DNA of 64,000 bases from Chrysomallon squamiferum (lineage: Eukaryota > Animalia > Mollusca). The notes beneath the pieces were generated by a model. It was not told the DNA's origin. It saw only the letters and a program-made list of their open reading frames with translations, and did no database searches. Numbering within the stretch: position 1 is the stretch's first letter; each line of letters starts with the position of its first letter. This document shows, in pieces, positions 10,353 to 54,563 of this stretch. Where the stretch lies: assembly GCA_012295275.1 (NCBI GenBank), contig CM022677.1:14012001-14076000 (forward strand), given 5' to 3'. A program made the position numbers and the translations under genes.

Positions 10353-10900
10353 CAAAAGAAAGATAAGCATTGAAGCTTACACCCTTCCTTTTTTCAGTTG
10401 GTATCTTCTTCTCACTGTGTGTTGTCTGTCAAAACCAACTTCAGTCACAAGTTGAAATTGCAGAGGACTACAGAACTATTTCCGGGTATTACATTTTTCA
10501 TAAAGAAAAAAATATCGATTTAGATATTTATTTACCATCACTACTACTGAGAAATTACCTGCAGGGCTTACGATATAATACGTTTTAAAATAAAATTTAA
10601 AACTTTGTTATATCGTATAAGTTTATTTATTTATTTATACTTTTTTTATTCAGTAGTCATTTGTTTATTCTGAGATTTTGTAAACCTGACTTTATAATTA
10701 TTTCAAAGAATACATTACTTCAGGTTTCTTTTACTGTACACGTACGAGTTGGATCATGAATAGCGAAATTATCTTGCAGCATTCATGTACACTCAGATGT
10801 TTATTTTGTTGTTTTTTACTACAGTCAGTGGTTTTCAACTGGTTTTCTTTGTTATCTCTAAATATTTATTATTATTATTATTATTATTATTCACACAGAT

Positions 10901-13029
10901 ATGGCAACAGCTGCAAACTCCGATGATAATCTTTCGTGCTGCATTTGTAGTGAACTTTTCAAGAAGCCGCGAATGTTAAACTGTGGACATTCGTTTTGCA
11001 GCAAATGCCTGCAGGACTATATAAGTCATAATTACAGCACAAACGACATAAAAATCACCTGCCCGTTCTGCAGGCAGGATGTCCACATCTCAGACAGCTC
11101 GAAACCAGTGAATACATGGGCAGATCAATTCCCTATAAACCTTTCACTACAGAACGCCGCTAATGATCGGCTACAATCAAAGTTTTGTGAGTCAGCAGTG
11201 TTGTGTTTAGATTTGTCACAATAAAAAACTAAAAAAAAAAATTGAGTGATTGTTTAACTAAAAATATTTGTGATATGTATTAACCACGACAGCCTAAAGA
11301 AATAGAGGAAATTTTATTTAACATTTTCTACTCAGAATTTTTAAAGTAGTTGATAAAATAAATTCTGAAACTTCACATTGCAGACATATATTTATTAATA
11401 ATAAGTAGTCCTAGTTAATTAATTAATTCACTGATTGATTATTTATTTATTTATTTATTTATTTCAGCTCAAAAGGGAGATTACATTTCAATTCTGAGTT
11501 CTGTTTCTGAAAGTCTCAAAACCTTTAAAGAAGTTCTTCAGACAGAGATGGATGATATGATTGAGCAACTTCGCCAAGCCGTCGACATCAACGTCGTGGA
11601 CACTGCAGAAGAGGTCAGAAGGATTGGTAACACACTAATCACAGATTTTACTGCCGCAGTCCACAAAGAACAAGACAGGTTAATAAGAGAAATAGAAAAA
11701 TCTCAGAACTATGTAAACTCAGAAATAGACAAATTATTCAATGAACACAAACATCTGATTGAGGAAAACGAAAAAATGATAAAATTGGGGGAAGATTTGC
11801 TGACAAGAAAATCAGAGTCAGATATAAAAATTAACATTTCAAAATTCACCAAACTTCAAAACACAACTTCCGAGTTTTTGTTCAAATCTCGTTCCCAAAT
11901 AGAAAAAGCAAAGTTTAAAATAAATCTGATAAAATCTGATAAAAAGGCAGAAATGTCAGTCCACATTGGAGAAATATCGACAAACATCCAAACAGACACA
12001 CAGATAGACACACTCAAACACATACACACCATTTACACGGAAACACAACACACAGACACACAGATAGACAGACAGACAGACACACTCAAACACACAGACA
12101 CCATTAACACAAAAACACAACATACAGACACACAGATAGACAGACAGACAGACACACTCAAACACACAGACACCATTAACACAAAAACACAACACACAGA
12201 CACACAGATAGACAGACAGACAGACACACTCAAACACACAGACACCATTAACACAAAAACACTAGAAGATAAATTCAGTACTTGTCCGGATTCCCTGCTG
12301 GTGTCAGGTGCAGAAAAAAGCAAAATTGTTGTTAGTGATTATAACAATGTCTGTGTAAAATGTTTTTGTTTAGAAAGAAAATCACTGATAAAAAGATACG
12401 AAACTTCCTCTCCACGATTCGGTCTTGCTGAATCACGTGATCAGCGGGGTGATGTTGTTGTTGTTGTTGCTGTGCCAGGTAAACGTAAAATATTGTTTTT
12501 AAATTTGAAAAACTTCAAACTGGTAAAAACAATTACAACTGTTAAACGGTATCGATATATCGCTGTGTTACCTGGCAACCGTCTCGCGGTCACTGAGTAC
12601 AATGGTCAGTGCTTGGACATACTGACAGACAGTGGTCAGCACATTAATTCTATCTCAACATATTTGATCCCCAGTCCGTGCAGTCTCACAGTTCATGATC
12701 AATGTCTGATTGTTGTGTCAAAGAAAGCAAATGAAAACAGTTTAGTTTGTGTGACGTCATCAGGTGACGTCAGATGGGAGTCACGTGATTCCGACAAACT
12801 GAGAGACTTGAGAGGTGTTACATGTGACAGAGAGGGAAATATTTTTGTTTGTGATTATGATAGAAATTGTGTTGTTCAGGTGTCACAAGGTGGTAACATT
12901 ACACGTGACATCCTCACTGACCAGGATGGACTGTCCGGACCTTGGTCTGTCTGTTGTGATGACAACAAACTGTACGTGGGAGAGTTCGACACCGGAGAAA
13001 TAAAAATATTTACATGGTGTAAAAAGTAA
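10901..13029 (+). CDS. TRIM-like RING E3 ligase (RING-HC + coiled coil + repeat linker + NHL-like beta-propeller), copy A; join(10901..11186,11468..13029), 615 aa
   Basis: C3HC4 RING (CCIC...CGHSFCSKC...CPFC). Donor GTGAGT at 11187 and acceptor TTTCAG at 11462-11467 give a phase-1 junction in frame with ORF 11548-13029. C-terminal NHL-like blades (RGVTCDREGNIFVCDYDRNCVVQV; LSGPWSVCCDDNKLYVGE). A CACAG acceptor just before the ATG implies a non-coding upstream exon. Confidence 0.9.
12043..12258 (+). repeat. In-frame 72-bp (24-aa) tandem repeat x3 within TRIM copy A
   Basis: TQHTDTQIDRQTDTLKHTDTINTK three times (units start 12043, 12115, 12187), preceded by a partial unit; copy B has one unit. 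Confidence 0.95.
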
Positions 13030-13351
13030 ACTTCAACCTGTTTGCTAAATTAGTTTCACTTTAACTGTTTTGAAGTTAAAAGACATTTCTTTCTTTACAT
13101 GAATTGATAAATAAACAGAAAATGAGTTATATTATTTATTTACTTATTAATTTAGTTAATTAAGTAATTAATTTAGTTACTTTGTTTAATTTCATTTCTT
13201 TTTTTTATTAAATATAATACCTAATTCATCAATTCGTTATTATTTGTTTTAATTACGATTATTATTCTTAAAGTCTCGTTTAAAAATACTAAATTGCAAG
13301 ATAAATTTCAAAACAAAATGTGATTTACTTTAAAAATTTTCTCCCAGTTTT

Positions 13352-13433
<82 letters not shown>

Positions 13434-13806
13434 TGTAAATTATTCTGTTATTTTTGTAGTTTATTTCAAGAAATTGTGTTATTAAATATATATATATATA
13501 TATAAGTCCAGTGTAATCAAAATAAAACTGAAATAAAATATTTGTATGATAAAATAAAATTCTTCTGTCATTATTTCATTTAATTTTAAAACTATTTAAC
13601 ATTGTTTGTTGATATTCACCTATATATCTATATGTCTGTCTGTGTGTAAAATATAATGAATGTGTATAATATCAATGTAGAACTGTTATTATAAATTTAT
13701 TATTAACAGCTAATACAGATTATTGGGGTGTTTTTGTGTGGAGGTTCCAAGGGTACTCAGCTATTCTATTTCATTTTATTTTTTATTTTTATTTTTGAAG
13801 AAGAAA

Positions 13807-13908
<102 letters not shown>

Positions 13909-14084
13909 AAAAATAAAATAGGAGAAACAACCGCACGAAAGAAAAGTGCAAATAAAAATATAAAAACATAAATAAAATAACGATGTTTTAAAAACATGAC
14001 TAAATATGTATACTGGAGATCTACAGACACGCGTTTTAAATCCGGGTGTTAGGGGTCGTGTTTCCTCTTTATTTACTGAGTACG

Positions 14085-14700
14085 TTCAAGTTAGTTTCTG
14101 AGCGGGCGCATCACCTATTAAAATATATTATTGTAATTTCTATTAATGTCACTGTCGTTGCCGTCGTACCGGCGTTGCCCCTAACGTTATTGGTGTACTC
14201 CTCATTATTCCTTTTCATTTTTTACTCGCTGTTATTCTTATTTTCTGACCATTCCCATCTTATATTATGATTATCATCTCTATTAATGTCGCCGTCATTA
14301 CCATCGTATGCGACGTTGTTCTTAACGTTCTCTGTATTATTTTGCTTTTTATTAACTAGTATTCAAACTTTCTTAGTGTCCACAACCTATGTTAAAAAAT
14401 ATTATCGCTATTTTTATTAATGACGCCGTCGTAGTAGTGTTATTCTTTTGCGCTTTTTATTTCCTCATACTTTCTGAGCGGGCACATACTACGTTAAAAT
14501 ATATTAATGCAATTTCTATTAATGTCGCCGTCATTGCCGTCGTACCAGCGTTGTTCTGAACGTTTTGGTGTATCTATTAATGGGGTGATCGTAAAGGGGT
14601 TGTTCTTAACTTCTTAGTGTCCGCATCCCATTAAAATGTAATATTAGTTTTTATTAATGTCGCCGTTGTTGTCGTAATAACGGTGTTGTTTCTAACGTTA
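14085..14700 (+). repeat. Diverged ~110-150-bp tandem repeat, 5 units, CpG-richer than the background; mirrored at ~53130-53740
   Basis: Core 'T(C/T)TATTAATG(T/A)C(G/A)C(C/T)GTC...GTCGTA...CGTTGTTC..AACGTT' at ~14139, 14279, 14413, 14515, 14651. Confidence 0.8.
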
Positions 14701-15743
14701 TTACTTACTTAGTTATTAATTTAATTATTTATTTACTTCTCTAGTTGTTAAACATAGAAAATAATCTTCTAGACAGGTATATACTATTTCAACCTATTAA
14801 TAAATATTATGTTCTGCTTCTAGGACTAATGTTAAATTACTGCTTCAAAAATGTCTTATTTCTATATTAAAAAATCTATCTGAAAAATGAAAGAAGCATG
14901 AAATTCCACTAGTGTTCATTAAAAAAGTATTTTCAAAAAATCACAAAAACATTATTAAAAATATGGAGAAATATTTCTATGCACAGTGACAGCAATGACA
15001 GACTTTCACTGGAATTGTCTCATTTATCTATGAGAAAGATTTTTATTTTTACTATATGAATCAAAGAAAAATGTCAACATGAAAACATTAATGAAATATA
15101 CATATTTATATAATCTGTTCATTCTTTGAGTGTTTGAATGAAAGTAAAATATCTCATTCAGCTGTCTCTCTCATTCACTTAGCTGTCTTTATAACTTGTC
15201 TCTGTCTCATTTGTATCTCTAACTTGTCTCAGTCTAATTCAGTTGTCTCTGCCTCATTCACTTGTTTCTATCTATCTCTATTTATAATTATTTTATTTAT
15301 TTGTTGTTTATTATTAATTATTATTTTAGTTTTGTTTTTGTTTTTGCTTTTGCTTTAGGTTGGATATAGTTAGAAATTAAAGTGAAAAACAGAGCTAGAA
15401 GTGACTTCACTGTATTTCAAACTCAATGTGCAGCCAAGTTAACTAAATTTTCAGCATAATCAAAACAGTCTTAAGACAAAGTTGGACTATTGACATCTAT
15501 AGTTTGTTAATCAAATGGTTGTTAGAATGAGTGAAAATAAATATCAGATTTGTGGTTATTAGTAACTTAATTTTCACTACTAACAGATTTTGTAAAAAAT
15601 ATTTGATTATTGTTACTTCACTTAATATTTTATGAAGAGAGAATAAAAAATACAACTCACACCAGCTATTTCTAGAGAGAATTCATTTAAATTATGTAAA
15701 ATAAAGTATTATTTTTATTTTATTATAATTATTATCTTCTTTA

Positions 15744-15782
<39 letters not shown>

Positions 15783-17044
15783 TATTCCTATTATTGTTAT
15801 TTCCATTCTAGTTATTATTGTTATTATTATTACTATTACTATTATTACTATTATTATTGTTGTTCTTGTTATTATTATTATTATAAATAATTGTGCCTGT
15901 CATTATTCACTGGGTTTCTTCACTTGGAAATAAAACTAAACAACTTTCTTAGCTGAAATAGATGAGTTTTTTTTATTGCATACAAAGTAACATTAAACAT
16001 GATAATGCCCATTTAACAATTTGTAAACTTTACCATCATGATCATGTCTGTTTTTCATAAAGTACTATTCACACCAGCCCACAAAAACATTTACATATTA
16101 TTTCAAGTTCAGTATGTGCCTTTACAATGTCTTTGTGTATGTTTTTACTGATCTAGGTTGCCAAATGGGAAATGTAATTAAATTTAAATACATTATAGGC
16201 CACCGAATACAAAATTTATATCATTTAAAATATATTTAAATTAATATGTTGACACTATCTAATTTTAATGAATTTTTGTTTTAGACAAAGGGAAATGTAC
16301 ATATATTTAAAACATTTTTAAATTAAAATGTCATAACAATCTATTTTAATGAATGTTTAACGATATTGGCCAACAAGTAAGAAATCTGCATATAATTCTA
16401 CATTTAAGATGTTAACGAAAATATATATATTTTTTAATACATTTTTTAACAGACCATTAGGCCAACTAAAGGGAAATTATCTTATTCTTAAAGGTTTTAG
16501 TTTGTCTACAAATACAAAGTTTGCTGATGTGAAACTCTATTTCCAGATGTAATCAGCTGCAGAAACTGGTACATCTAAACATTCTGTAAATTTCTGAGTT
16601 ATACAAACATATATACATCTTATTTCTTTTTATTCATTCAAATTCAGACCATACTCTTAAATTGTGAAAGAGAACATTTTGTTTAATAATACAAGAATCA
16701 TCTCTCACTTAGCAAAACAGCACTTTTGAAAACATATTTATAAAAAAAATTAGATCACTTTTCATGATGTTAGAGTGCCACAAACAATTCAGTGTGATTC
16801 TAATTATGCATAATGAAGACACATATCACAAATAAGTTTTGCATATAATCAGCTAATAACAAATATTTTCAACACTTGTGAATTAAAAAAGCCTGACAGC
16901 TGGTGTAATATCATGATGAAACAAATACAGCATTTAGTTAAAATCAAAGATGGTGAATATTAATAAGAATTATTTTGCTAACAGTAGTAGTAGTAGTGGA
17001 AATAATAAAAATATAATAATACTAATGACAGTAATGTTAATAAA

Positions 17045-17081
<37 letters not shown>

Positions 17082-18466
17082 GAAGTTGTAATAACAATAA
17101 TTATCTTAATATTATTAGCATAATAGCATAATAATAATAATAATAAGAATAATAATAATAGTAATAATAAAAATAAAAATATTATAGAATTTTTACATTT
17201 CACCATTTGATATAAGACATTAACTTCAAAGAGTCTATTTTCTGTCATTATCATTACAGAAATGACTCAAATAATGTTCTTAAACACTTAATAAAAATAT
17301 TCATACTATATAATTAACCAATCCATTGAAAATATTATAATATAGGATGGTTTAAATATAAAATTACAGTAAGATATTTTTTTCATGTTCACTAAGAGTG
17401 AATTACAAAGTCAATATTTAAAAAAAGATAAAATAGATACATCTGTTTTCAATGATCAATACAGATAGTAAACTACTTTTGATTGGCTAATATGTCTGAG
17501 AAAATCATTTTCATTGGTTTAAAAACAGTTGTCACATATATTTTTATAGATAATACATAAATATCAAATGTGATATAAAACTGACATTTTAATTTTTATG
17601 TGATATTTTTCTTTGTCTGATGTCATGTTATAAAACAGGATTGTTCATTGGTTAAAGCTCAGATCTATTCTACTGTTTGACTGGCCAGAAGCTCTAATAA
17701 ATAAATAATTTCATTGGTTAATTATTAAAGCCATTCCTATTTTCATTGGTCAGCTGACAATCCAATCACCTCTCAGGATTTCATTTATAATTAAAGAGTT
17801 TTTTCTGTGCACAGTTTTCACTGTTTGATTCAAGTGCTGAGTTTAAAATGTAAATCCACTAAAACATTAACAAATATGTACAAAAATCTGCTAAGATGAA
17901 CAATTCATTTTTTCTGAGACTGTTTCCTGTAATAAGATTTCACTGGCTAGTGTGTTGTACCACTGTGTTGTATTGTTTCTTCAGATGTAACCGGTGATCC
18001 TTTGACACTGATTCACACAAACATTTTCTTTAGATCATCAATGGTAATTTAAATGAAGTGTTTTCTGTAATGTCTGTTTTGTTCATTTTGGTCACAGACG
18101 TTTGTCAAAATAAACACAAAGTTCTTTCACAATAATGTTTCATTTGCACATTTGTTTGAATGGTCCAAGGTATTGAATAATGTATGCCAATATTTCTCTG
18201 GCCTGAATTTTTCAAGAACAACACTGATTGGTTTTGGTGGTCATTTGTTACATTCATGATGATTGGTTTATTACAGATCAGTGGCCAGTCTTTTATTACA
18301 GACACCATGACTGGCTATTTTTAACTCTCAGATCACCATGGTTACATGATTGGTAAATAACAAACTTTTTTACCAGTCTTTTCTTACAGACACAGTGACT
18401 GGATAACAGAACTCTCAGAATTTTGTTACAATCATAGTGATTGGTTAATTTAAAATCCCAGATCTG

Positions 18467-20630
18467 CTATAATGAAGTCTCATTGGTTGGTGGCCTAACA
18501 GTGTCTATCTCAAGCACTTCAATTCTTTGTTTGAGCAGTTTTATCTGTCTCTCGTAGCGATCTGTCATCCCCTGTAACTGAGTCTCAAGTTTCTTCAGCT
18601 TGCTCTGGTACTTCTTCTTTGCTTTATCAAACGCTGATATCAAGGCACTGTAAGAAAAGAAATAAATGAAAAAAAAAAAAATATATATATAAATAAATAA
18701 ATTAATAAAATAAAATAAAATATTATTATTTAAAATTAGTTTATAGTATTAAGGCACTATGGGGGAAAACAAAGGAAAATGAAAAGAATATAAAATTAGA
18801 ATATGTTATTTATGTTACAAAAATACTAATCATATAAAGGAACTACAAAAATAAAATTAAAAAGCTATGTAACTATTATGTTAATTTGATTTAAAAATAA
18901 AAATAATATAGCAATGCTTTATAAAATAAAGTGAAATAAGAAGATGTAAAATTAAATCATTTATATTACAAAAATACTATACAATAAAATTAAAAACATT
19001 AGAATAATAATGATATCAAGACATTACAGGGCAAAAAATAAAGTAAAATAAAGATTAGATATGTCAATTATATTACAGAAATACTAATGCTATCACTACA
19101 AAACATTACAAAACATTACAAAAAAAAACAAAACAAAAATTAGATGCAATTTATGTTAGAAATATATAAATGTTAATAACAACAATATTAGTAAAAGTGA
19201 TTTTAGTACTGCACAAAAAACTCTTCCACAAAAAATCCCAGACAGAAAAAGCAATGACATTATGTCAATTTATATACTGTTTATATAATTATAATATTCA
19301 TATAATAAGTTTATAATAAAAATGTCTCAAAATATAATTTGAATTTCTGTTTGAAACGAGTGTATGTGTTTACATATATCAATGTTTATTGTAGAACATG
19401 AAGATTATGCATGACATGCATACACCTGTATGTTTACCTGTTAGCTCGTTTCAGGTCATTGACAAACTCTGCTGACTGCTGATGTCTGATTTCTGAGTTT
19501 TTAGAGATTTTCTCTAGAGCAGCCACTAACTCTTGTACTCTGAATTTGAGTCGTTTTTCTCTTCTGAGTGACTCACACAGGTCCTGAGCTATCTCCATTA
19601 CATCATTCGATCTCAACTCACAGATAGCTGGCACTGTCAGCTCATCATCTTCATCATCCTGATGATAAACAATTATTCATTAAGAACTTTAGTAATTATG
19701 AAAGCTATCAAATTATCATCTTTATGATGATGATAATAATGAAAACTTGATTGTTGTCTGTTCCTTACCTTAACACCTTGATGAATCAAAATTTAAAACA
19801 TTTAAAAAATAATAATTACAAATGTTTTCAATTAATTATTATCATAATGATACATTTAAAATTTAAAAAGTAATTATGAAAAAGAGTATCAGTGGTTATG
19901 GCATACAAAATCAATATTATGATATAACCTATCATTATTACCTATTATTATTACATTCTGTTGCACTCAGTATTCTTAGAAAGATACAATTTAAAATTAT
20001 AATAAAGAACTGTGATAAACAGTATCAGTAGTTATGACACAATGATCTATACAGTAAGTTTGTATTATTTGGTTTTCTCTGTTTATATGAACAAGTCACT
20101 TTATTTAGAATACTTACATAATAAAATAAACAGACATATTCTATAAATATTATTTAGATTTTTTTCTTTTTAAATCAGGTTTAAAACACACAAACATGTG
20201 ACAAATAATAAAATAAATAATGTGACATATCTACTGTGTATGTTATTATTATATTTGGTTCCCCTGTTTATATAATTATATCTGTCTAACTACTAGAAGA
20301 GATAAAGTAAGAGAAAATCACATGTTTCTGTTTGCCCAGTCTGTTTATATAAAGTAAGAGAAAATATTGTGTTTGCTCTGTCTAACTATATATATATATA
20401 CTGTCTAAAGATATATATATGTTTGCCCAGTCTGTTTATATAATTATATATATATATACTGTCTAACTTAGAAGAGATAAAGAGATAAATAAAACAGAGA
20501 TAATCACATGTTTGTGTTTGCCCAGTCTGTTTATATAATTATATATATATATACTGTCTAACTTAGAAGAGATAAAGTGATAAATAAAACAGAGATAATC
20601 ACATGTTTGTGTTTGTCCAGTCTGTTTATA

Positions 20631-20676
<46 letters not shown>

Positions 20677-22594
20677 CTAACTTAGAAGAGATAAAGTGAT
20701 AAATAAAACAGAGATAATCACATGTTTGTGTTTGTCCAGTCTGTTTATATAATTATATATATATATATATATATATATACAATCTAACTTAGAAGAGATA
20801 AAGTGATAGATAAAACAGAGATAATCACATGTTTGTGTTTGCCGTCTCTGCCCAGTCTCTGCTGGTGCTCTGAGATCTCACACTTGAGATGCTCTATCTG
20901 TACTCTGTAGGCCTGCTCCTGTGACTCCTTACCACTCAGTCTCAACTCCACAGCTCTCTTCTCCTTCTCCATCAAGTAGTTCTGAGCCTTCAGCTCCGCC
21001 TTCTCCTCCTGAAAAACAAAATTACAACAAGGTGAGTAAATTGAGTCTGTCCAGAATTCAGAAAATGTTTTAATACAAATACAGTATGATTCAAAATAAA
21101 GAAAAAGTGTCATTAATAAAATCAAAAGAACAGAAATACTAGTTAATGTAGTACAAGACATCAAGGTAGTTTTAATAATATGCTATTCCAATGTTAAGAA
21201 CAAATCTGTCTAGAATCCCAGAAAATATTGTTAAATACATAGAATAAACATAATAATAAATATAAAACAAAGTCCAAAGTGTTATTAGTAAAAGAATATG
21301 AAAAGAAATAATACAACACAAAAATAGAAGACAATTTTTATATTAATTTATTCAAATTGTTAAAAACACAAACACAATGAGAGAAGACTCCTGTTCACAA
21401 AAAATAATGGGTTATTCTGTTTTAAGATTAGCAGCAAGGAATTTTTATACAGACAGAACAACATATTTAGTAACACTGACCTTCATAGCCATCAGCTCCT
21501 GCATTAACACAGCATTTTCCAAATCCAGTCTTTGAGCTTCCGGAGTTTTCTTGGGTTCGTCAAGCAGATGATCAAAGTGTAAACTCTCCAGCTCCATGAT
21601 GGTCATTCTGACCACTGCCCAGTCATTCTTCAGTGACTGAATGTACTCACGCAGTCTCTGTTCATCGAGTTTGGTGAAGTCAGGGTCCACTGAGCTAGCC
21701 GTAGAACTGGACGTGCTGGACCATTCAAAATGAAAAGTTGCTTTGTTAAAGATTATCACTAGTTATGGAAAAGTCAGTTAATCAACTTGAAATTTATAAT
21801 TCTGTAAGTTAGGTAAAATCCTTTTAGAAAGATAGTTAATGCAAAGTCCAGTTAATTACAGCATAGACTTTAATATACTGTAAAATCTAAATTTATCTTA
21901 GTAAGAAAAAACCCAGTTAGATGCAAAACTATGTTTTTTTTACTTATAAGTCAATTTTGGGTAATAAAAGAAATAACAAAGGTAAAAAAATAGATTCCAA
22001 TAAAGTACAAAATAAAGATAATTTAGATATAAAAACACAATTACTTTAAGTATTCAAAACAATGTAGATTAAATTCAATACAAAGGTATTGTCTCTGTTT
22101 TTGAAGGTAAAAAAATACAGTCCATTTAAATATAAAGTCAGTTTAAATATTGAAAAACAAACTATTAATGTATAAAATACAGTCAATTTCAGTATTAAAC
22201 TTTAAGAGAATAGTTAAAATGCTAAACACAAAATCTTATTAGACAGAAAAGCAATTACAGTAAAGTATAAAACAAAGTCAAAGTAGAATAGCAGATGTCA
22301 TCTTGAAGTACTGAAAAAAAAAGTGTATTAATTAACAAAGTTAGTTTCAGTATTAAAAAAACTGAAACTAAAAATAATGGAAAACAAAAAGACTTCAAGT
22401 AAAGCATCACCTTGCAGTTCTGTTGTTAGAAGAGAGATCTTTCCAGGGGTGAGAAGTACAGGGTGTGGTGTGAACTCCACAGCTTCTGTCCAGTTTGTGA
22501 AGTAGATGTTGAGCCACACCTTCAGCAGACATCCTCGAGTGATGAGCTCTCTGTGGTATAGACGTCACCTCCACCTGATCCTCACACTCCTTTA
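18467..22594 (-). CDS. MCC: Open five-exon C-terminal MCC block, copy A (translation unproven)
   Basis: Five exons with AG/GT ends, compatible phases and no stops, ending RPPTNETSL-TAG; no intact upstream frame, so it would need an internal start. Confidence 0.4.
20270..20850 (-). repeat. Intronic minisatellite (~105-130 bp, variable (TA)n) built from the MCC exon end and splice donor
   Basis: Unit CTGG(G/A)CAAACACAAACAT|GTGATTATCTCTGTTTTAT...CTAAGTTAGA..(TA)n repeated about 5 times; about 3 units in arm B (46990-47270). Confidence 0.85.
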
Positions 22595-25500
22595 CTGAAA
22601 TTAACATTGAAATTAAATATACATTTAGTAAAATTAGCATTACAGATTTATTGTAGAATACACTAACATGCACAGATATTAAAAATTAACAATTTTCACC
22701 ATCTGTGCATTAGGCTAATTTCAGTGTCTATGTATTAACAGCTAACACTGAAAGATGTTAAAAAATAAAATGAAAAACAATTTTCACCATCTTTAGATGC
22801 ATTTTTAAAAGATAAATTAATGACAGACACACACAGTGTCTATATGTATTCTGAAATTAATAATCATTAATACTGAAATGGTAAAGACATATAAACACAC
22901 ACACACATATACAAAACTTAACTTTATTTATGTGTAAAAATAGAATGAATTTCAGTGATGTAGCAATTACTGAAATAATATATTTTTAAATAAGAATTTT
23001 AGTTGTAAACTCACCCAGACTTCCAAGTCCTGCAGCTCTGCAGTTAGGTAACAAAACTCCCATCAAAACTCCAGCAGAACACACAACTCTCCATAAGCCT
23101 CTATCATCTGATCAGAGTAGTTCATAGCCAACTGCAGCGCTGTGTTGTTAGACTCATACTTCCCCATCAACACCATCAACCTCTCCAAGTAGGACTTGCT
23201 CTCGTTCATTGAGGTGGCAATTTTGCTCTGAAGTCTTTCAAACTCAATTTCAAACTCTTTCACGTTAGTTTAAAATCAGTTAAATTTATATCTGATGTCA
23301 TGACAAAAATATCAATGATTTATTCTGTTTTATTGTTTAAGAATCTATTTATTTTAGTTAATTTGAAACAGAATTGCCCAAAGGCCAAAAAACAAGGTTA
23401 AAAATCGATATTATGAAAAATAATGGGTAATTCTGTGTTATTGTTAAAAATGTATTTATTTTGGCGATTTGATTTTGAATGATTGTAGTTGGGAAACATT
23501 TGTAAGTTTAAAAATCAGTTAAATTCATATTTAAAATTTGAAAAATACTGTCTATCATTCATTTTCTGTCAGTTTGATTTTTTCTGAGGTAATATGACTT
23601 GGAATTACCACCATAAAAAACCCCATTAATAAATTAACATATCATACTGGAAATTATGAAAAATATGTCTATTTTTTCCTTCATATTTTTGCCAGTCAAA
23701 TAACATTTGTGAATTAAAACATCAGTTAAGTTTCTACTGTAAATTATGAAAATACACTGTCAGCATATTCCAATTTAACATTTAAAAGTGTTAAGCATTA
23801 GTTATAAATTTGTTAAAATATTATGCTAGTGTGTTTTATGTGGTTATGTAACATTAGCAAGTTCAAACATTTTGTAATTTTCCAGTGAAGTTACATTCCA
23901 GCACAGGAAACATCACTGTGCATATAAATGATGTTAAATGAGATTTACCCCAAGGGAGGTAATTTCAGCACCAAGAATCTGTCTGTCTCCAGCACATGTT
24001 TTTAATTTCTTCAGTTCTGCTGTTTTAGCTACAGGAAACTGATCACTGCCTGCAGTGGTCCTGTGAATTAATAAGTAAATAAATAAATAATAAAATAAAT
24101 AAATAAATAAATAGAATATTTACATAAATACTTAAATAATAAATATACTATCAAATGTTTTTACTAGGAAAATAAGCAGCAAACGGAAAGAAATGGATGT
24201 ACAAAGAACAAATAATATATATGTATATATTATAGTTTGGTATTTTTAAAAAAATAATATATATATATGTATTATAGATTTTTTGTATTTTCTCCACATT
24301 CCATATATAAAAAAATAACACAACACACACACTGTCTACCTCCACTGATTCCCTTATAGTCACATGCAATAAAGATGAGAAACAAAATAAGAAATGTTTA
24401 TTTATACCTCTCTCCTGTGTTAGGAGTTACTTTTGTTACATGGAACATAAATGAATGACAATATAACAAATATTTATTTATACCTCTCTCCTGTATTAGG
24501 ATTCACTTGTGACTTTGTTGGTGTTGATGTTTGATTCTTCATGGGACTAGAAGACAAATCTGTCAGAGGTAACTTATCCTGTAACTCTTATCCTGTAACT
24601 GTAACAATTTATCCTCTAGCTTTTTCAACTGTAACAAAATAAAACAATTTATCCTGTAACAATTTATTTATTCTGTAACTCTTTCAGCAGTAAACAAAAT
24701 GTAATAATTTATCCTTTAACTATTTTTGCTATAAACTTTAAAAAAAGTGTATTTTCTAACAACTTTACAGTACTTTTTTTTAAGAATGTAACAATTCCAT
24801 GCAGTTACTAACAATTTAACTGTTACTCTTTCATAGAAAAACTCAATGCAGAAATTATTAACACAAGCCATACTATATAACTGAAGGAAAAAGCAATCTG
24901 TATAATTAAGTTTTGTGTTTCAATTCTACCTACAAATAAAAATATAAATATAATTATTTTAATATTTATGCAGAGTTACCTTTCTTTTCAACTTCTCCCT
25001 GTCATCATTAATATATTCAATATGGCTACATAGCTGTGTAAGTTCTATTTTCTGTCTGCCTATCTGTTCTTGTAGAACTGATATTCATCGTTGAGTCTTC
25101 TCTGATACGTTGAACGACGTTCAGCGTTCATTTTTTTTTCTTTCTGCAATGGCTGACTCTTCTGTGACAACTCACGGGAAAATTCTGCATTTATTTCAAC
25201 CTGTTTCTAAAACATCCAAAAAAAAAAAAAAAAAAAACCATTTATAATTATTCTCGGTTTTAATTTTATATTTTATTTAGTAATTTAAAAAAAAAGCACA
25301 TGAACAAATTTTAATTTTATTTGTAAATTTAATTCTATTTTTGCTCTTCTAATCAAATTAACTGATTGAAAAAATATCTCATTTTAACTATATATTTAGT
25401 TGGAACTTTTCTTTTTAATTCCGTCATTCCTTCTAACAGTAAGAAAATGAGAAAAATATCTAATTTTAATTATATATTTATTTGTTACTTTCTTTTTAAT

Positions 25501-27019
25501 GCCTTCTAGCAGTAAGTAAACGAGAAATTTTTTTTATAATAATTTAATAAATTTAATAAAAAAAATCCAACAAATTATAATATGTTGCTATTTATAGCAT
25601 AAATTAAAATTAAAATTAATAAACTTTTAAAACAATTGGACATCTATCTAAAACAGCCAAAAAAATAAATATAAAAGTAAATGATTACCAGGTCTCGCAG
25701 ACTGGAAGCCATTTGCATTATTCTCGTTGATACTTCCTCCATCATTGCTTTTGTCCGATCATCTTCTTCCACAGAAATGAAAAGAAAAAAAGAAAAAAAG
25801 AAAAAAAACACTTTCAAATGTCTTTACACTTTCTGGAATTTGGTATTTTCAACAAATTCATAGAAATTATTTCTTAGTCTTTCATTAAACACAGTAAAGA
25901 ACAGCAAGTTAATGGTGTTGTTTTACATCTGAAGAATGACTGACTTGACTCATACAATGAAAGAAAAAAATGGTTAAATCTCTTCGCATATTTCTGGAGT
26001 TTCAGGTTTTCAGGAATCTTTTCTTGTCCATTAAATACAGTGAAAAACCAGCAAACAAATGGTATTATTTTACAAAACATAATGACAAGCCAAAACTATG
26101 TTTCATTATGTGTCCCGATATATTATATTATTGTTTTTATTATTCATTAAAAACAGTGAAGAACAGCAAACTCACACGATATATTATTTAATAAAGACCA
26201 CTGACCTGATGACATTAATCTGGTGTCTGTTTTCTTCATCAGCTCTGCAATGACGTGTGAAGTTCAGTGACACGTTCGTCTAGAATCACTAAAATATTTG
26301 AAGTTTTGAATGGTTTTTGGATATAACAGTCTATAAGTAAATTAAAAAACATACAGACTAAATTCTCTTAGTATTCAAAATAACAACAGACATTTTTTTT
26401 TTTTTTGATGAATTTGAATTAGTATATACTGTACTTATTGAACCTATGTACTCTTTGTTTTATTGTCTGCTTAAGAAAACATCATAAATAAATAATCAAA
26501 TAAATACATAAATAACCAAATAAGGCAGAAAGTAAATATATAATAATAAAATCTTTTTAAATTTAAATTTGCTCATCAGATTAACGTACATATTTTCTAA
26601 ATCTTTTCCAGGAAGATAGCCAGAGTAGCTTTAAATCATCACCAAGAGTTATTGCCAAACACGTTATTTTCTAGTCAGGCTATATTCTTAGAATAACAAC
26701 ATTAAAAGGCAGGTGGAAATTTAATTTCAGGATAATGCTAGGAAAAAAATAAATAAAATAAATCATTTCTTACCTGACATTTAGTCAGTTATTTTTCTAA
26801 ATGATCTCTTTCGGCTATACTTGTGCCAACCTGTTGTTCAGCTCGATTATCTCCCATTTCAGAGAGGTCAAGGCCGCCTGGTGAAGCTGGGAAAGAAAAT
26901 AAATAATTTTAAATTATTACATTTTGCAACCAAATTAAAATAGGTTATCTTTGAATGTTTGTGATTCAGTCTATTTAATCATTCCTAAAGCTAATTAAGG
27001 AAAAAATATCGATAATGAA

Positions 27020-28984: not shown

Positions 28985-29545
28985 ATATTCACGTACAGCA
29001 TATTTGATTATTTTGTTGTTGTTTTTCTTATTATTTTCTTTTTAGTAAATAAATAAATTAATTAATTAAACAATCCTTAAAAATATATTTCCTTTTACAA
29101 GTTAAAACGATGTTTAATTTTCATCTCAAGAACAAAGAATTAACTAGTGTAACAGATGTTACAATGAGCAAGCATGTTTATATAGGTTTGTCGTTGTATT
29201 TTATGTCTAAAGGCAAAGTGTAGCATTTGCAATGATTCTAAGGCGTTGAAAAAACTCAAGAGACAAGAGGACGTAATCATTATATTTTGAACGAGACTAA
29301 TCATTTACACAAACAGGCATCTTTGAAAAATACTGCAGAATTAACCAAGAATGAAAGAAGTGATGAAAAAAATATAAAAGAAATCAATAAAATCCAATCA
29401 TAAATACTTTTAATATATATTTTATTATTATTTTTTTTTTTTTTAAATAAATGCCTATGGAAAAAATTTACAAACAACAAATTAATCAATAAGCAAGAAC
29501 TCATTTCTAGGATCTGCGCACATTAAAAGTTGCATCGTGTTTCAT

Positions 29546-31025
29546 TTATTCTTCTGGATTTGTGGAACATGGTCGCTTAAATACTTGCTATTTTTCTAGA
29601 ATCCAGTAAGTTGATACCCATTTAGAGCCAATAAGAACGGGACAAGCTCCGTGAATTGTCATTTTGTTAGGTGAACCATTCCGATATAGCTGCACCTGCT
29701 TTAGGTTGTATTCTTACACCAAGATGAAGAAACACTGTTGCACCTCCTTCTACATCACTCAAATAGTTTAACTATGTGGCAATTCTGTTTTCACCGGAAG
29801 AATATGCTATGTTGAAATAGTCAGTGTGAGTCGTGAACTGTCTGCCTATTCCATAGTTTGCCACCTGAAGTGGTTCTGAAGCTTTCATTGAAAGACCTGT
29901 GATTGCTTCAATTCGTTTCTGACTTCTCGCGTCTGCTTCTATGAAACCTCTTCCTAGACATGTATGTTTGTTAATTCTTTTCTCAGATTTGATATTTTTT
30001 CAACAGTGATTGATTTCAGATGCTTGTAACAGAGGCATAGAAACTGTTTTAATGTCTTCAATTGCAGCATCACTGATAAAATCATGATAGAGAACAATTT
30101 TCGGTGAGAAATGCAGAATCTCTTCTTTAGCAGGCTTAAGAATTAGAAGCGGATTTTTGTTGTTGTAATGGTAGCGATATTTCAAACGATGTCGCTGTCG
30201 TACTATAATAACGTCTTCACCACGACAGAGAACATCGAAAATAGTTTTTTCTTTAACTCTGGCATTTTCTTTTCTCTTTTCTGTCCTTGAATATTTTTTC
30301 CTTCTATTCGGAGCGCGTTCAAGTCCAGGAGCTAAAATTAACTGTTCATTTGTCAGATTTAAAACGTGTTCTATCTGTCCCGCTAATTCTCTACCGTTAA
30401 TTTCATAGTCATGAAATACGCTCTGAATTGTTTCCGTTCTTTGTTTCTCGAGACTTGTTTCCATTCAAATATGCACATATTTGTATTTTTTCATTTTGTA
30501 TGCGAGGCGACCTAACTGATAACAGTCTTCTGCTGATAATCTCTGTATATATCGTTCATATATAAAATCGTCTGCTAATCTTGTCGCATTTAATTTGTAC
30601 GTGTCTTGAAGTCGAAACACAGCTGCAGCGACCCCTTCTAAATCTTCGTAACATGGAAGGTGTTCACGAATTTCTTGTAGTTTGGTTAATTCTGACTGGG
30701 ACGTAATATTTTGGTTAAGAATAGGCTGCACATCTCGTTCCCAGTCCAACGTGAAACGTTTAATATATAAAAATGCACCAATCGGGTTGGCTATGGAACG
30801 ATTTGGATCTTTTAGTGCGATCGAACAGTGCTGTTCGATTTGATGTGAAATTGTTTTCAACTTTTCCAATTTAGTTCCTTCTTCATAAACATGACTAAAA
30901 TTTCTTAATGCTATTGCCAAGTCTCTTCCTGCTAGTACAGAGCTGTAGAGATGTGATACGGACGTAAATAGTTCTGAATTCATAGCTGATAAAAGCAAAA
31001 CTAAAATAATGTACTGCTGATACAT
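29546..31025 (-). pseudogene. P4HA: Intronless prolyl 4-hydroxylase alpha subunit pseudogene (probable retrocopy)
   Basis: Signal-peptide-like start, ELFTS, ANPIGAFLYIKR, DLEGVAAAVFRLQDTYKL, LSAEDCYQLGRLAY, PLLILKPAKEE, VLYHDFISD, EPLQVANYGIG, HTD (HxD), NRIAT, YLSDVEGGATVF, HGACPVLIGSKW, FKRPC. In-frame stops at 30465-30467, 30000-30002 and 29772-29774, a frameshifting deletion near 29690 and a further TAG near 29589. No introns in the CDS. Confidence 0.92.
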
Positions 31026-31778
31026 ATTTGAAGGTATCTACTAGCGATATGAGTACCTAAATATCTGGTAAAAAAGTAGAGTTATGATGAATATAATTCT
31101 AAATGTATATCAGTTTAAAATACGCAGGTTATTAAACTGATGGGGGGAGGGATAAAATGACACGTTTCATTATTTTATATTTCAGTTTATGTGTTTATTT
31201 TATTTATTTTATTAGTTTTACTTTTTACTTGTTGTAATAAACAGATAACTCAGCAGGTTGATGGATAGATACAAAGTGAGACAGAGAGTGATGGATAGGA
31301 AATTAGGTAACTACATGAATATGGAAGTGCAGGTACATCTGTTAGATGTGCTAGAACGTGTGAATGAGAGTGTGCTAGTGTTATAAATGGGCAGACATAC
31401 AGAAAGACAGAAGTTGTAAGGTAGTTATGCAGGGAGATAGCTGCAGAGATGGACAGATGATTTATGGATGGTTATTGATGGATCAGAATGTGAACAGATA
31501 GATAAAAAAGAAAATGATAGGTATGTAAGTTGAGTACATTGTTCTGTTACAGAAATGTTTGTATGTATGTGAAGGAAATGTGCTTGTATGTTTATGAGGA
31601 GTGGCTGTTAATTTAACGTGAAAGGAGGTTATATCTTCAGTTTAAACAGCTCATTGGTCATTCTCTCTAACTTTTTTCATGTTGCATCCATCATTTTCCT
31701 TAACTAGCAAAATATCAGCAATATCCAGATTTGTTTTCCCATTAGGACAACTGTCTCAACTGTATATTTTTATTTCAG

Positions 31779-33927: not shown

Positions 33928-34127
33928 NNNNNNNNNNNNNNNNNNNNNNNNNNNNNNNNNNNNNNNNNNNNNNNNNNNNNNNNNNNNNNNNNNNNNNNNN
34001 NNNNNNNNNNNNNNNNNNNNNNNNNNNNNNNNNNNNNNNNNNNNNNNNNNNNNNNNNNNNNNNNNNNNNNNNNNNNNNNNNNNNNNNNNNNNNNNNNNNN
34101 NNNNNNNNNNNNNNNNNNNNNNNNNNN
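33928..34127. other. Assembly gap (200 N)
   Basis: Run of exactly 200 N, typical of a fixed-size scaffolding join. Confidence 1.
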
Positions 34128-40669: not shown

Positions 40670-43241
40670 GTGAGTCAGTTAATCTGTTAATTAATTAATT
40701 TATATAATTATTTTGTGTTGATATATTTGTTTTTTGTTTTGTTTTTACTGTGTATGCTATTTATTTTATTTTTTTGACCTATGTGTCTGCTATTTTATGT
40801 TATGTTTTCGAATTTATTTAGTCAAACACTTGTTTGAATTTAAGTTTGGCTCTCAGTTTTTCACTGTTTGCATCAAGATGTTTTTAAATGTAAATTCAAT
40901 GAATTTTCAATGAATGTGTCATATAGCATTAGATGCTCACTGGAAAAATGTGTACAGAGAAATAAGTAATGTTTCATGGTTTCAGAAATTCCACAGCTAC
41001 AGTTTGGTGTTGTGTATATTTTGTGTTTGAATTTGATTGTGTTTAGACTGGTGGAGTAGCTGATTCTGAGTTTGGTAATGTTGTTATATAGTTTGTTACT
41101 AAAATGATTTTGGGTTTTGATGATGAAAGGGGTAACTAATGTTTACTTTATTTCTTTACTATTTGCTGATTGCAACATTCACCCACTCCAGTCTCCATTT
41201 CAATATGGCTGACTGTTGTTTAAAAACTAGATTGTAGTGAAAGGTGTGTTTTAAAACTAGATTGTAGTGAAAGGTGTGTTTTAAAGGGTTGATCAGGGCC
41301 TAGATCCTTGATGAGATGGATTTTAACACAGTATTTTAGTATCTGTAGGTTTTTGTCTGTATTTCAAGTGTTGTATGTTTTATTCTAACAGGAGACTGTC
41401 AGGCAGTGTGATTTTTGGTAAAAAGTATTTACAAGATGTGATTATCTTCTGTATGTGGCATCCGAACTTGGCTCTAACAATTTCAATGATTTTCTTTGTT
41501 ATTAAATTGTTGTCTATTTTTGTTAATGCAGTTTTTGTTTTTTGTTTTGTGTTTAGTGGCAGCTGAGTCTAGCATGTTGATAAGTGAAGTGCTGTTTTGA
41601 TTGTGTTTCATGTACTTGCTGAAAATGTGCATATTTTGCATATTTGCAAGGTATGAGAACTGGCTGGAGTTTCTATGGTGATGGACACTGCAGTAGCTGC
41701 ATGCTAATGACTTGAGTTATGTCACTGTGTACATTTTGTTGTGTGTCTGCAGGTCTGTCAGAGACCTCACTCAGGTAACTGTGACCTCATTTCTGTCTGT
41801 TGGTTGATGTAGCTGTCAGTATTAATTGTTGTCATGGCAGGTTTGTTGTTAAAGGTAAGTATGGTCCAGTAGATTGATTCCCCCCCCCTGTTTATGTCTG
41901 TGTGTGGATGTGTTTGTGTGTATGCAATACTGAGACAAAATTACATGTGGAATTACATAATAACAGCAGATTAATGTCATCAGGTCAGTAGTTTTAGTCA
42001 GATGTGAAATAATATATAATATGAGTTTGCTGTTCTTCACTGTTTTTAATGCAATTTAAACATGTATTGAAACAGTATAGTGTAGCTGGAAACATAATGA
42101 AATATTATAAGTTTGTCATTATTCAGTTTAAAGTGTGTTTGCTGTTCTTCAGTGTTTTTTTAATGCAATTCAATAACATAAATGAAACAGTACAGGTTTG
42201 TTATTTTTCAATTGTAAAATATCACGAGTTTGCTGTTCTTCATTGATTTTAATACAATTTAAACTTATAATGAAACATTACTCATTTACTTACTGTCAGA
42301 ATGAATTAAAAAACGTACAAAATAACTGTATATACCCAAATTATAATTGAGAATAATTATAAATTAATTTAAAAATATATATATATATTTTTTTTAGAAA
42401 TAGGTAATGAAATAAACGCCGAATTTTCCTGAGTTGTCACTAAACTGGAGTCAGCCATTGCAGAAAGAAAATACTTTCCCTCCACGATGTGTCTGATGAT
42501 CGCAACATCATTCAACGTCTCAGAGAAGATGCTGAAAAGCACAATGCTCAAAGTATCTGCAGGAGGAGGTGAACTCACTGCGAGTAGAAAACAATGCTCT
42601 ACAAGAACAGACAGACAGACAGACAGGAAATAGAACTTATACAGCTACGTAGCCATATTGAATATATCAATGATGACAGGGAGAAGTTGAAAAGAAAGGT
42701 AACTCTGCATAATGATTATATTTACATTTTTCTTTGTAGATAGAATTAAAACACAAAACATAAGTAATCTTAATTATTAAGACTCCATTTTCCTTCAGTT
42801 ATATAATATGGCTTTTATTACATTTTTAAGAGTTACAGGTTAAATTGTTACATTTTTGTTACAATTGAAACTTGCATTTTTATAGCAGTTGAAAGAGATA
42901 GAGAATAAACTGTTACAATTATGTTATAGTTTAAAGAGTTACAGAATAAACTGTTACTTTTTGTAACAGTTTAAAGAGATAATAAATTGTTACATTTTTG
43001 TTACAGTTGAAAGAGTTACAGGATAAGTTACCTCTGACAGATTTGTCTTCTAGTCCCATGAACAGTCGAACATCAACACCAACAAAGTCACAAGTGAATA
43101 CAGGATAGAGGTATAAATAAACATTTGTTATTCATCGCTATAAAGGAATCAATGGAGATAGACACATTTGTATGTTGTGTTTATTTTTATATATGGAACT
43201 TTGAGAATATACAAATTCAGGAAATAAGGAATTGAAAATGG

Positions 43242-43272
<31 letters not shown>

Positions 43273-43743
43273 AAAAACTTTTATATATGTTATTATTATT
43301 ATTATTTTTACTTTGTATATTTCTTTCTATTGTATGTCATGCATTTGCTGCTTATTTACTTATTAAAAGTATTTGATAGTGTTTTAAGTTATGTAAATAT
43401 TTGTATTTATTTATATATTTATTAATTCACAGGACCACTGAAGGCAATGATCAGTTTCCTGTAGCTAAAATAGCAGAACTGAAGAAACTAAAAATATGTG
43501 CTGGAGACAGACCCTTGGGGTAAATCTCATTTTGCTTTCTTTCTTTATATATCTGTGTTCACATTGGTGTTTTTATCCCAATAAAACAAAGAGAAAAGAA
43601 ACAAATCAGATAATTTTATATTTAACATCATTTTAATCTGTTCTAATTCATTTGTCAAATCATTTATCCTTTTTTTTTGTTCTTAAAATTAATTTTCAGA
43701 ATGTAAATTCTTAGAAATGTTTGGACTTGCTAGTGTTAGATAA

Positions 43744-43780
<37 letters not shown>

Positions 43781-45113
43781 TTTTTAGCAAATTTATATCT
43801 TATGCTTAACACATTTAAAACTTAAATTGGAATATACTGACAGTATATTGTTATCTGACTGAATAAATGTGAAAAACAAAATTAAAAGTTTGCAGTGATA
43901 CTGAATAACTTATAGACATGTTTTTCATAATTTCCAGTATGATGTTTTAATTCATTAAAATCTTTTTTTGTTTTTGTTTTGTTTTTTTATGGTGGTAATT
44001 TCAAATCATATCACCTCACAATAAAAAAGAAATTGACAGAAAATGATTCACTGACATATTTTTCAATATTTCAAGTATGAATTTAATGGATTCTTAAATT
44101 TACAAATGTTTTCCAACTACAGTCATTTCAAATCAAATAACACAAATAAATACAGTTTTAACAATAATACATAATTATTATTCATTATTTTTAACCTTAT
44201 ATTTCTGGCTTTAAGGTAATACTGTTTCAAATCAACTAAAATAAATATATTTTTTAAGAAAATAACACAGAATAAGTCATTGATATATTATTTTTCATGA
44301 CATCCAATATGATTTTAACTGAGTTTAAACTTTGCTTATTTTTTCTACTTCAGCTTCCAAATACAAAATTAGCCAAACATTTAGTGCAGAGTTTACAGGG
44401 CTGTTCTAACATGCAGGAAATTGTTCAGACTTTGTATCAGGTGACAGAGGCATTCGAAGTAGAGGCATGTTCTGCTGGAGAGTGAGATGGGAGTTTTGTT
44501 AGCTAACTGTAGAGCTGCAGGACTTGGAAGTCTGGGTGAGTTTACAACTAAAATTCTTTTTTAAAAATATATTATTTCAGTAACTGCTACATCACTGAAA
44601 TTCATTCTTCTTTTATACGTAAATGAAGTTAATTTTTGTATGTGTGTGTGTGTGTGTCTTTACAATTTCAGTATTAGTGATTATTAATTTCAGAATGTGT
44701 GTTGTATGTTTGTGTCCATTTATAAAAATTCAGTATTTAAATAATTTTCAGTTTGCATGTTTTTCATTTCAGTAAAAAGGATTTAATTACTTTTCTGTAT
44801 GTTTAATGTTAACTTTCAATATCTGTAGCTGTTAATACATAGACAATGAAATTAGCCTAATGCACAGATGCTGAAAATAGTATTATATTTACATTATTAT
44901 ATTTACAGTATTATATTTTATATCTGTGTATTTTAGTGTAAGTTAATTTTTGACATCTGTACATGTTAGTGTTTTATGCTAAATTTTACTAAATGTATAT
45001 TTGATTTCAATTAGTGTATGTTAATTTCATAAATCTTTATTTTAATTACAGTTAGACTGCATATGTTAATTTCAGTGCCAGCATACTGATTTCTGTAAGT
45101 GTGTGTGAGAAAG

Positions 45114-45175
<62 letters not shown>

Positions 45176-45244
45176 ATTTTAATAAGTCTTTATGTTAATT
45201 TCAGTAAGTATTAATTTTACCAAGTCTTGATGTTAATTTTGCTA

Positions 45245-45688
45245 AGACTGTATATTAATACAGAAGTGTATTTTCTCTGTGTTTATTTTCAGTAAGTGTG
45301 TATATTAATACAGAAGTGTATATTCTCAGTGTTTATTTTCAGTAAGTGTGCATATTAAAATAGAAGTGTGTTTTCTCTATGTATTTTCAGTAAGTGTGTA
45401 TATTAATATAGAAGTGTATTTTCTCTGTGTTTATTTTCAGTAAGTGTGCATATTAATACAGAAGTGTGTTTTCTCTGTGTTTATTTTCAGTAAGTGTGCA
45501 TATTAATACAGAAGTGTGTTTTCTGTGTGTTTATTTTCAGTAAGTGTGTATATTAATACAGAAGTGTATTTTCTCTGTTTATTTTCAGTAAGTGTGTATA
45601 TTAATACAGAAGTGTGTTTTCTGTGTGTTTATTTTCAGTAAGTGTGTATATTAATACAGAAGTGAGTTTTCTCTGTGTGTATTTTCAG
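45245..45688 (+). repeat. 50-bp intronic minisatellite (~9 units) ending in the true MCC splice acceptor
   Basis: Unit TAAGTGTG(T/C)ATATTAATACAGAAGTGT(A/G)TTTTCTCTGTGTTTATTTTCAG; period 50 (e.g. 45291, 45341); absent from arm A. Confidence 0.92.
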
Positions 45689-48600: not shown

Positions 48601-48965
48601 CATATCTAATCTTTATTTTACTTTATTTTTTGCCCTGTAATGTCTTGATATCATTATTATTCTAATGTTTTTAATTTTATTTTTGTAATATAAATAATTT
48701 AATTTTACATCTTCTTATTTCACTTTATTTTATAAAGCATTGCTTTATTATTTTTATTTTTAAATCAAATTAACATAATAGTTACATAGCTTTTTAATTT
48801 TATTTTTGTAGTTCCTTTATATGATTAGTATTTTTGTAACATAAATAACATATTCTAATTTTATATTCTTTTCATTTTCCTTTGTTTTCCCCATAGTGCC
48901 TTAATACTATAAACTAATTTTAAATAATAATCTTTTATTTTATTTTATTTTATTTTTATTTATTT

Positions 48966-48997
<32 letters not shown>

Positions 48998-49179
48998 GTG
49001 CCTTGATATCAGCGTTTGATAAAGCAAAGAAGAAGTACCAGAGCAAGCTGAAGAAACTTGAGACTCAGTTACAGGGGATGACAGATCGCTACGAGAGACA
49101 GATAAAACTGCTCAAACAAAGAATTGAAGTGCTTGAGATAGACACTGTTAGGCCACCAACCAATGAGACTTCATTATAG
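45689..49179 (+). CDS. MCC: Open five-exon C-terminal MCC block, copy B (translation unproven)
   Basis: Five phase-compatible exons without stops; one in-frame codon deletion (QNYLM to QNLM) and a weak GTGGCA donor at 45882. Confidence 0.4.
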
Positions 49180-50582: not shown

Positions 50583-50634
<52 letters not shown>

Positions 50635-53934: not shown

Positions 53935-54080
<146 letters not shown>

Positions 54081-54370: not shown

Positions 54371-54405
<35 letters not shown>

Positions 54406-54453
54406 CAAACAAATTTCTTGAAATAAACTACAAAAATAACAGAATAATTTACA

Positions 54454-54563
<110 letters not shown>

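Follow-up and report, generated by a model that had tools for sequence, protein, structure and literature searches.

A RING, coiled-coil and NHL-type propeller gene pair in Chrysomallon squamiferum with changes clustered on the propeller top face: a putative diversifying E3 sensor family

Results

Gene structure and domain architecture

The window, the whole stretch of 64,000 nucleotides analyzed here, is AT-rich animal DNA and carries two related genes, copy A and copy B, in opposite orientations. Copy A has two coding exons on the (+) strand (10901-11186 and 11468-13029), with splice sites assigned from GT/AG, reading frame and homology, and codes for 615 amino acids. Exon 1 contains the ATG and a C3HC4 RING finger at residues 13-57 (Pfam zf-RING_UBOX, E=9e-10; zf-C3HC4, E=5e-8). 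After the intron of 281 bases (11187-11467, +), exon 2 begins with a predicted coiled coil (11468-11901, +), a 112-residue helix and a 29-residue return helix spanning 2-113 and 116-144 in the AlphaFold2 model. It continues with a Thr/His/Asp/Gln-rich linker (11994-12262, +), a 72-base unit repeated 3.7 times and predicted to be disordered, and ends with a six-blade NHL-type β-propeller and the stop codon (12238-13029, +). The coding linker (55660-55785 in copy B) is a microsatellite-like ACAGACAC repeat that varies in length among paralogues and is 144 bases shorter in copy B than in copy A; such variation would alter propeller reach.

Copy B lies on the (-) strand, with exon 1 (RING) at 56578-56863 and exon 2 at 54892-56305, the latter coding for the coiled coil, the shorter linker and the propeller (55658-54892). 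The RING Cys and His residues are intact in both copies. One point missing from the first-pass annotation is a frameshift in copy B as assembled: a 1-base deletion at 55107/55106 (-) within blade 5 leads to an early stop at 55061-55059, leaving a product of 510 amino acids that lacks blades 5-6. The frameshift adjoins a short G run and may be real or an assembly error. The deletion was absent among 10 indel rows with a share of at least 1% in four public runs, where a single copy would amount to only 0.24-0.49%.

The Pfam matches to the RING, which is N-terminal as in TRIM/RBCC proteins, were above the cut-off. Pfam gave no B-box match for exon 1, for the sequence read through from it or for the first part of exon 2; the intron is closed in three frames, and close homologues align without a B-box. 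A Cys-containing read-through after exon 1 had looked by eye like a B-box start and gave no Pfam match. The absence of a B-box makes the family TRIM-like rather than TRIM proper. An antiparallel coiled-coil homodimer was predicted with a score of 0.57, against 0.01 for the best of three controls; 17 of 29 eukaryote homodimers and none of 30 single chains attain the score mark used. In the model, contacts pair residue i with about 120-i, at least 95% of contacts agree between runs, and pLDDT is at least 82. This result may stem from resemblance to solved TRIM coiled coils; by sequence, the coiled coil gave no match to such coils (five listed, best E=1). No filamin domain was found by Pfam before the propeller, where the region is a low-confidence repeat linker, and the C-terminal domain is a propeller and not a B30.2/PRY-SPRY domain. 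Weak Pfam matches to TumE (E=0.07) and ETRAMP (E=0.036) were taken as chance.

The nearest named relatives are nine proteins of the vent snail Gigantopelta aegis with 37-56% identity (seven among 10 homologues looked up, plus two). A RING without a B-box match was present in 6 of 16 homologues scanned. Atlas look-alikes of a G. aegis protein, which serve as leads, are RING-NHL clusters from molluscs, cnidarians, echinoderms and brachiopods. A search for proteins of near length gave no match among 381 candidates, and a metagenome scan matched one of 593 stretches, which was 26% identical and was set aside.

Divergence between copies A and B

The codons of copy A (12259-13029, +) were compared with those of copy B (55658-54892, -). 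The hand count of 41 amino acid-changing and 7 silent-only codons in the propeller proved exact (254 comparable codons, 16.1%), and the figure of about 15 changes in the RING and coiled coil was reproduced as 15 of 269 codons (5.6%), with 7 silent-only. The rate of amino acid change differs between these parts (Fisher p=1e-4), as does dN (0.088 in the propeller vs 0.025 in the RING and coiled coil, p=8e-6), while dS is alike (0.055 vs 0.047, p=0.81). All nine multi-residue patches quoted earlier were found, although two of them, DLNR and F-MG, are out of frame in copy B as assembled. The changes do fall in patches, with 22 neighbors within two codons against 11.8 expected (p=5e-5).

For dN/dS over the whole propeller the point value is 1.59, and the bootstrap interval of 0.86-3.4 spans 1 without transition weighting; with kappa 2 the value is 1.88 (1.02-4.0), and with kappa 3 it is 2.06 (1.12-4.4). 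The neutral ratio of amino acid-changing to silent changes is about 3.3:1, to which 41:7 is close. The bare ratio over the whole propeller is suggestive, a hint of selection that is insignificant against neutral expectation. The flank described as near-identical is so 3' of the gene (33/992, 3.3%, then 92/5620, 1.6%) but not in the intron, where 21 of 266 bases differ (7.9%). The propeller DNA differs at the same level (59/767, 7.7%), so the 3' flank is the wrong neutral yardstick.

Changes map to the top face of the propeller

The propeller of copy A was modeled with AlphaFold2 from a 30-sequence alignment whose 29 homologues were chosen as single-stretch matches. The model has six blades and 24 strands with a pLDDT of 95.1, and one blade has a Pfam NHL match (E=1e-7); the six-blade NHL propeller thus holds for copy A, and copy B as assembled is without blades 5-6. 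The best solved fold matches are the NHL domains of TRIM2, Thin, TRIM71, TRIM3 and Lin41 (TM 0.76-0.82, identity 15-18%), with TRIM2 on top (TM 0.82) and the Brat NHL domain also among the matches. In NHL domains the top face is built from the b-c and d-a loops, and in Brat this surface binds RNA (PMC4015489); the top-face definition and its ligand role in Brat as given in the first-pass annotation agree with that source.

Strands a-d were assigned manually from the secondary structure of the model. With loops extended by one residue, changed codons number 30 of 89 on the top face, 5 of 67 on the bottom (p=8e-5) and 6 of 94 in strands. The mapping of variable sites onto a predicted structure, which had been put forward as a check, thus upholds the proposal of a constant E3 module with a variable propeller face. 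The corresponding counts are 22/66, 3/45 and 16/139 without loop extension, and 33/111, 6/89 and 2/50 with loops extended by two. None of 255 circular shifts reached 30 top-face changes. Ten codons have multiple base changes, and every one of them lies on the top face (4.1 expected, p=0.002).

Top-face dN (0.21) exceeds both the dS of the propeller (0.055, p=2e-4) and the intron divergence (0.083, p=7e-4). Against the dS of the top face itself (0.07-0.08), the difference is borderline (p=0.02-0.17 over six settings, with 3.5-5.5 silent changes). The neutral yardstick is uncertain because of conversion, the non-coding divergence ranging from 0.7% to 20% along the arms. Structural clustering on the modeled propeller is the main signal, beyond the bare dN/dS.

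Five top-face patches on the (+) strand lie in blades 1-3 or the loops into them: residues 361-370 in the D-A loop into blade 1 (12262-12291, 7 A/B changes), 387-390 in the B-C loop of blade 1 (12340-12351, 3 changes), 407-413 in the D-A loop into blade 2 (12400-12420, containing the copy A Arg for Pro), 431-437 in the B-C loop of blade 2 (12472-12492, 5 changes) and 451-456 in the D-A loop into blade 3 (12532-12549, 4 changes). Another lies at residues 515-518 in the B-C loop of blade 4 (12724-12735, +), where paralogues have 6-base indels (rows 55180-55183). By count, with no electrostatics, the top face holds 12 Lys+Arg vs 17 Asp+Glu in copy A and 12 vs 16 in copy B.

Variation in the family

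In the first 17 of the 29 homologues, which are distant ones, variability is higher at the A/B difference sites than at the remaining sites (p=3e-6), and higher on the top face than on the bottom (p=0.005-0.02). Family data were drawn from contigs of six of 14 public runs (X numbers) with at least 85% likeness. In four runs, 431, 1928 (X3), 1266 and 488 contigs aligned to the copy B gene. Dividing the depth at the most variable position by single-contig depth gave copy-number estimates of 73, 74 and 60 in the DNA-like runs X3, X6 and X7, with a range of 46-95. The 1928 contigs in X3 and these values indicate a multigene expansion of roughly 50-90 copies, a rough estimate because summed contig depth is no true copy number.

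Variants were scored on 228 bases covering blades 4-6 of copy A. Among the best-supported 40 of 95 variant rows, 6 are private to copy A and 34 are at family level, and 30 of these 34 lie in top-face codons. Within the same best 40 of 95 rows, an amino acid-changing row is found in 12 of 27 top-face codons vs 2 of 49 other codons (p=3e-5). Residues 558-562 in the B-C loop of blade 5 (12853-12867, +) are a family-wide hypervariable spot with 14 of the best 40 rows, seen in all four runs. Residues 579-586 in the D-A loop into blade 6 (12916-12939, +) hold 8 of the best 40 rows; this loop is identical in A and B, so the family signal is no echo of the A/B pair. Positive selection on the putative ligand-binding loops is supported by both the pairwise structure-partitioned test and the placement of family variants.

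Along the copy B gene, depth in X1 drops from about 900-1000 in the central bins of exon 1 to 15-127 in the intron, and in X8 it drops from 530-580 to 8-32; the DNA-like runs stay covered. X8 is RNA on record and X1 is RNA by inference, so the intron trough in both indicates that the family appears to be spliced and transcribed. Expression thus appears supported for the family as a whole and not for copies A and B individually: in X1 the residual depth at copy A private letters is 0-11, and at those of copy B it is 85, 0 and 0. In X3, 0.9-2.5% of the depth comes from copy A private letters. No more than 45% of the copy A words sampled occur in the best runs, and two of the private letters are without depth in X6 and X7. 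Both observations hint that the repertoire may differ between individuals; this was excluded from the evidence because contigs lose rare variants.

Copy A has private changes at conserved sites, namely R412, V567, Q569 and G570. R412 is an Arg where 17 of 17 homologues keep Pro. The other three lie inside 11 bases (12880-12890) of a conserved bottom loop, and two of these three letters have depth in X3 alone among the DNA-like runs. Copy A may therefore be decaying or unusually specialized. With the frameshift of copy B and the low depth of copy A in X1 also considered, either copy may be decaying.

Origin of the pair

The genes lie in the arms of an inverted duplication, the left at 10863-26226 (+) and the right at 41963-56899 (-), and faint collinear homology of 70-78% persists upstream of both genes. 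The non-coding divergence between arms runs from 0.67% (10/1500) to 20% (436/2142), and identical runs reach at most 612 bases. A scaffold gap of 200 N at 33928-34127 lies near the center, and the relative orientation of the two halves is that of the assembly; a reading as two alleles was considered for this reason. Copy B letters at residues 533, 559 and 560 are common to 9-79% of family depth, and the A/B difference thus partly reflects variation found across the family; other differences, such as M437, are nearly private to copy B. From the arm sequences we infer that the pair are old paralogues with patchy recent conversion, not alleles.

Both arms also contain exons of a second gene, of the MCC/USHBP1 type, with Pfam USHBP1_PDZ-bd matches (E=6e-13 and 2e-10). 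Its decayed 3' exons occupy 19437-25206 (-) in the left arm, and the counterpart exons with different lesions occupy 42336-48236 (+) in the right arm. Each arm has distinct deletions and frameshifts in this unit, yet the last exons are near-identical and open. Possibly it is a duplicon that travels with the ligase gene. At 45249-45688 there is a 50-base tandem array of 8.9 copies, with splice-acceptor-like units before an MCC-type exon; the left arm is without it. Between the arms, an intronless prolyl 4-hydroxylase alpha-like sequence (29500-31030, -; Pfam P4Ha_N, E=2e-22) has several in-frame stops and is likely a processed pseudogene. Upstream of copy B, a 610-base direct repeat with 86% identity is found at 57976-58585 and 61236-61840.

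Discussion

Proposed mechanism

Copies A and B are probably old, patchily homogenized members of a RING/coiled-coil/NHL family of about 50-90 genes, likely cytosolic E3 ligases that would recognize fast-changing foreign targets. The predicted coiled coil would form an antiparallel dimer holding two propellers and two RINGs. By analogy with Brat and TRIM biology, the top face may bind a ligand and the RING may attach ubiquitin to the target or to the sensor, with degradation or signaling as the outcome. Duplication and conversion would keep the RING, coiled coil and flanks alike, and positive selection would fix and reshuffle variants of the top face, while some copies decay. The first-pass annotation had offered positive selection or patchwork conversion as the source of the patches. 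Traces of both are present, since point change and sharing among paralogues are seen, and top-face dN is above the neutral yardsticks. Its arms-race reading as a whole is partly supported. The driver may be a microbial or viral protein in the cytosol, which is the least certain step of the scheme; pathogens have the best precedent, and symbionts and selfish elements are also candidates.

A more far-reaching version, which we regard as unlikely but worth stating, is that the TRIM-NHL propeller, normally conserved, became in a vent-snail lineage the basis of a germ-line repertoire. Its tens of variable cytosolic receptors would be reshuffled by gene conversion, would differ from one individual to another, and would mark microbes inside the cell, the snail's own symbionts among them, for ubiquitin-dependent control.

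Alternative explanations

Selection on the top face may be real with an opponent other than a pathogen, such as symbionts, selfish elements or self/non-self recognition in gametes or tissues. We consider this unlikely. The selection signal leaves the driver unnamed, and in G. aegis, the source of the nearest named relatives, symbionts live inside cells and TRIM orthogroups have expanded (PMC7895826). Six 'tripartite' entries, which may or may not belong to the present family, also occur in a supplementary expression table for that species, likely a symbiont-organ list (PMC7895826). Against this, the look-alike RING-NHL clusters, taken as leads, are widespread in molluscs and cnidarians, so symbiosis is unneeded for such expansions, and oyster TRIM-annotated genes track survival under herpesvirus, being among the survival candidates reported in PMC9437489.

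Another possibility, with a lower probability in our view, is that there is no positive selection and that the patches arise from tolerant top loops, from conversion tracts of older paralogues and from decay of one or the other copy. The mosaic divergence of the arms (chi-square p<1e-19) and the wide occurrence in the family of the copy B letters at 533, 559 and 560 are compatible with this, and the dS of the top face is nominally higher (0.078 vs about 0.04 elsewhere, p=0.3). The frameshift of copy B and the copy A changes at conserved sites fit decay. However, bottom loops are exposed as well, yet 7% of their codons are changed vs 34% on the top face. Old conversion tracts would add silent changes, yet nonsynonymous differences outnumber synonymous ones on the top face by 37.5 to 4.5, and the drift of a dead gene would strike strands equally, yet only 6 of 94 strand codons are changed.

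The proteins might also be RNA-binding regulators like Brat, Mei-P26 and TRIM71 with diversified RNA specificity, as the fold matches to the TRIM2, Thin, TRIM71, Lin41 and Brat NHL domains and the RNA bound by the Brat top face (PMC4015489) would allow. This seems very improbable, because acidic residues outnumber basic ones on the top face by count, but the face of Brat is described as electropositive in the available text of PMC4015489. Identity to those NHL domains is 15-18%, and the filamin domain and the B-box are absent. Given the residue count of the top face, the ligand seems more likely to be protein than RNA.

An assembly artefact, in which A and B would be alleles joined back to back across the gap, or errors, can be given hardly any weight: the arms are centered near the gap and the frameshift beside the short G run is possibly an error, but the roughly 7.7 kb that flank the gap on either side are without homology except for one 27-base match, the outer arms differ by 20-30%, the MCC-type exons carry different lesions, and private letters of both copies and family top-face variants are seen in independent runs.

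Comparison with known systems

The best reading by analogy is a diversifying E3 sensor family in the style of finTRIM and TRIM5 that uses an NHL propeller, with a putative target and immune role. Many TRIM-annotated genes of obscure function are known in molluscs, and specific recognition of intracellular invaders in invertebrates is a standing question. The available text of PMC7895826 reports, as immunity-related, the expansion of two TRIM orthogroups in G. aegis to 46 and 35 genes, and gives counts without architecture, a selection test or face mapping. In sea urchin, 140 genes are annotated as TRIM (PMC13043383, in the part available). In the literature searched, where most subscription papers are absent, no paper was found that describes the top face of an NHL domain as evolving under diversifying selection.

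The TRIM-NHL proteins of subfamily C (TRIM2, TRIM3, TRIM32, TRIM56, TRIM71, Brat, Thin, Mei-P26) share the RING, the long coiled coil and the propeller with the snail family, and the top-face geometry is the same (PMC4015489). The snail family differs from them in having no B-box and no filamin domain, and in a top face that is hypervariable and, by count, not basic. TRIM-NHL genes are present in few copies, 3-5 per species, according to the available text of PMC4015489. In primate TRIM2, two selected sites lie outside known domains, including outside the NHL array (PMC3845644, in the part available).

Malin is short and single-copy and is not known to have a long coiled coil, unlike the snail proteins. 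It resembles them in combining a RING with an NHL domain and no B-box; NHLRC1/malin, with a RING and six NHL repeats, is classed as TRIM-like (PMC3503706, in the part available). Unstable F-box genes of Caenorhabditis are a birth-death E3 family with a selected substrate-binding end and are proposed binders of foreign proteins, as stated in the available text of PMC8665587. They share a conserved ligase module and a positively selected binding end with the snail family. However, they are SCF adaptors, and the snail protein is of the stand-alone RING ligase type with an unrelated binding domain.

The closest likeness in design is to finTRIM, btr and trim35/hltr of teleosts and TRIM5alpha of primates, which share a big lineage-specific family with a near-constant RING module (PMC2657112, PMC3137616, as far as available). 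The finTRIM and TRIM5alpha proteins also share hypervariable, positively selected loops in the C-terminal ligand domain and recombination among paralogues (same sources and extent). Their ligand domain is B30.2/PRY-SPRY and they have a B-box, in contrast to the NHL propeller without a B-box in the snail family. Induction by virus is a feature of finTRIM and a possible one of the snail family. For testing, the locus offers a family whose ligase module is constant, whose variable face is mapped to about 90 residues and whose natural variants can be compared. If this reading is true, the arms-race design of TRIM5 and finTRIM would extend to a different binding fold.
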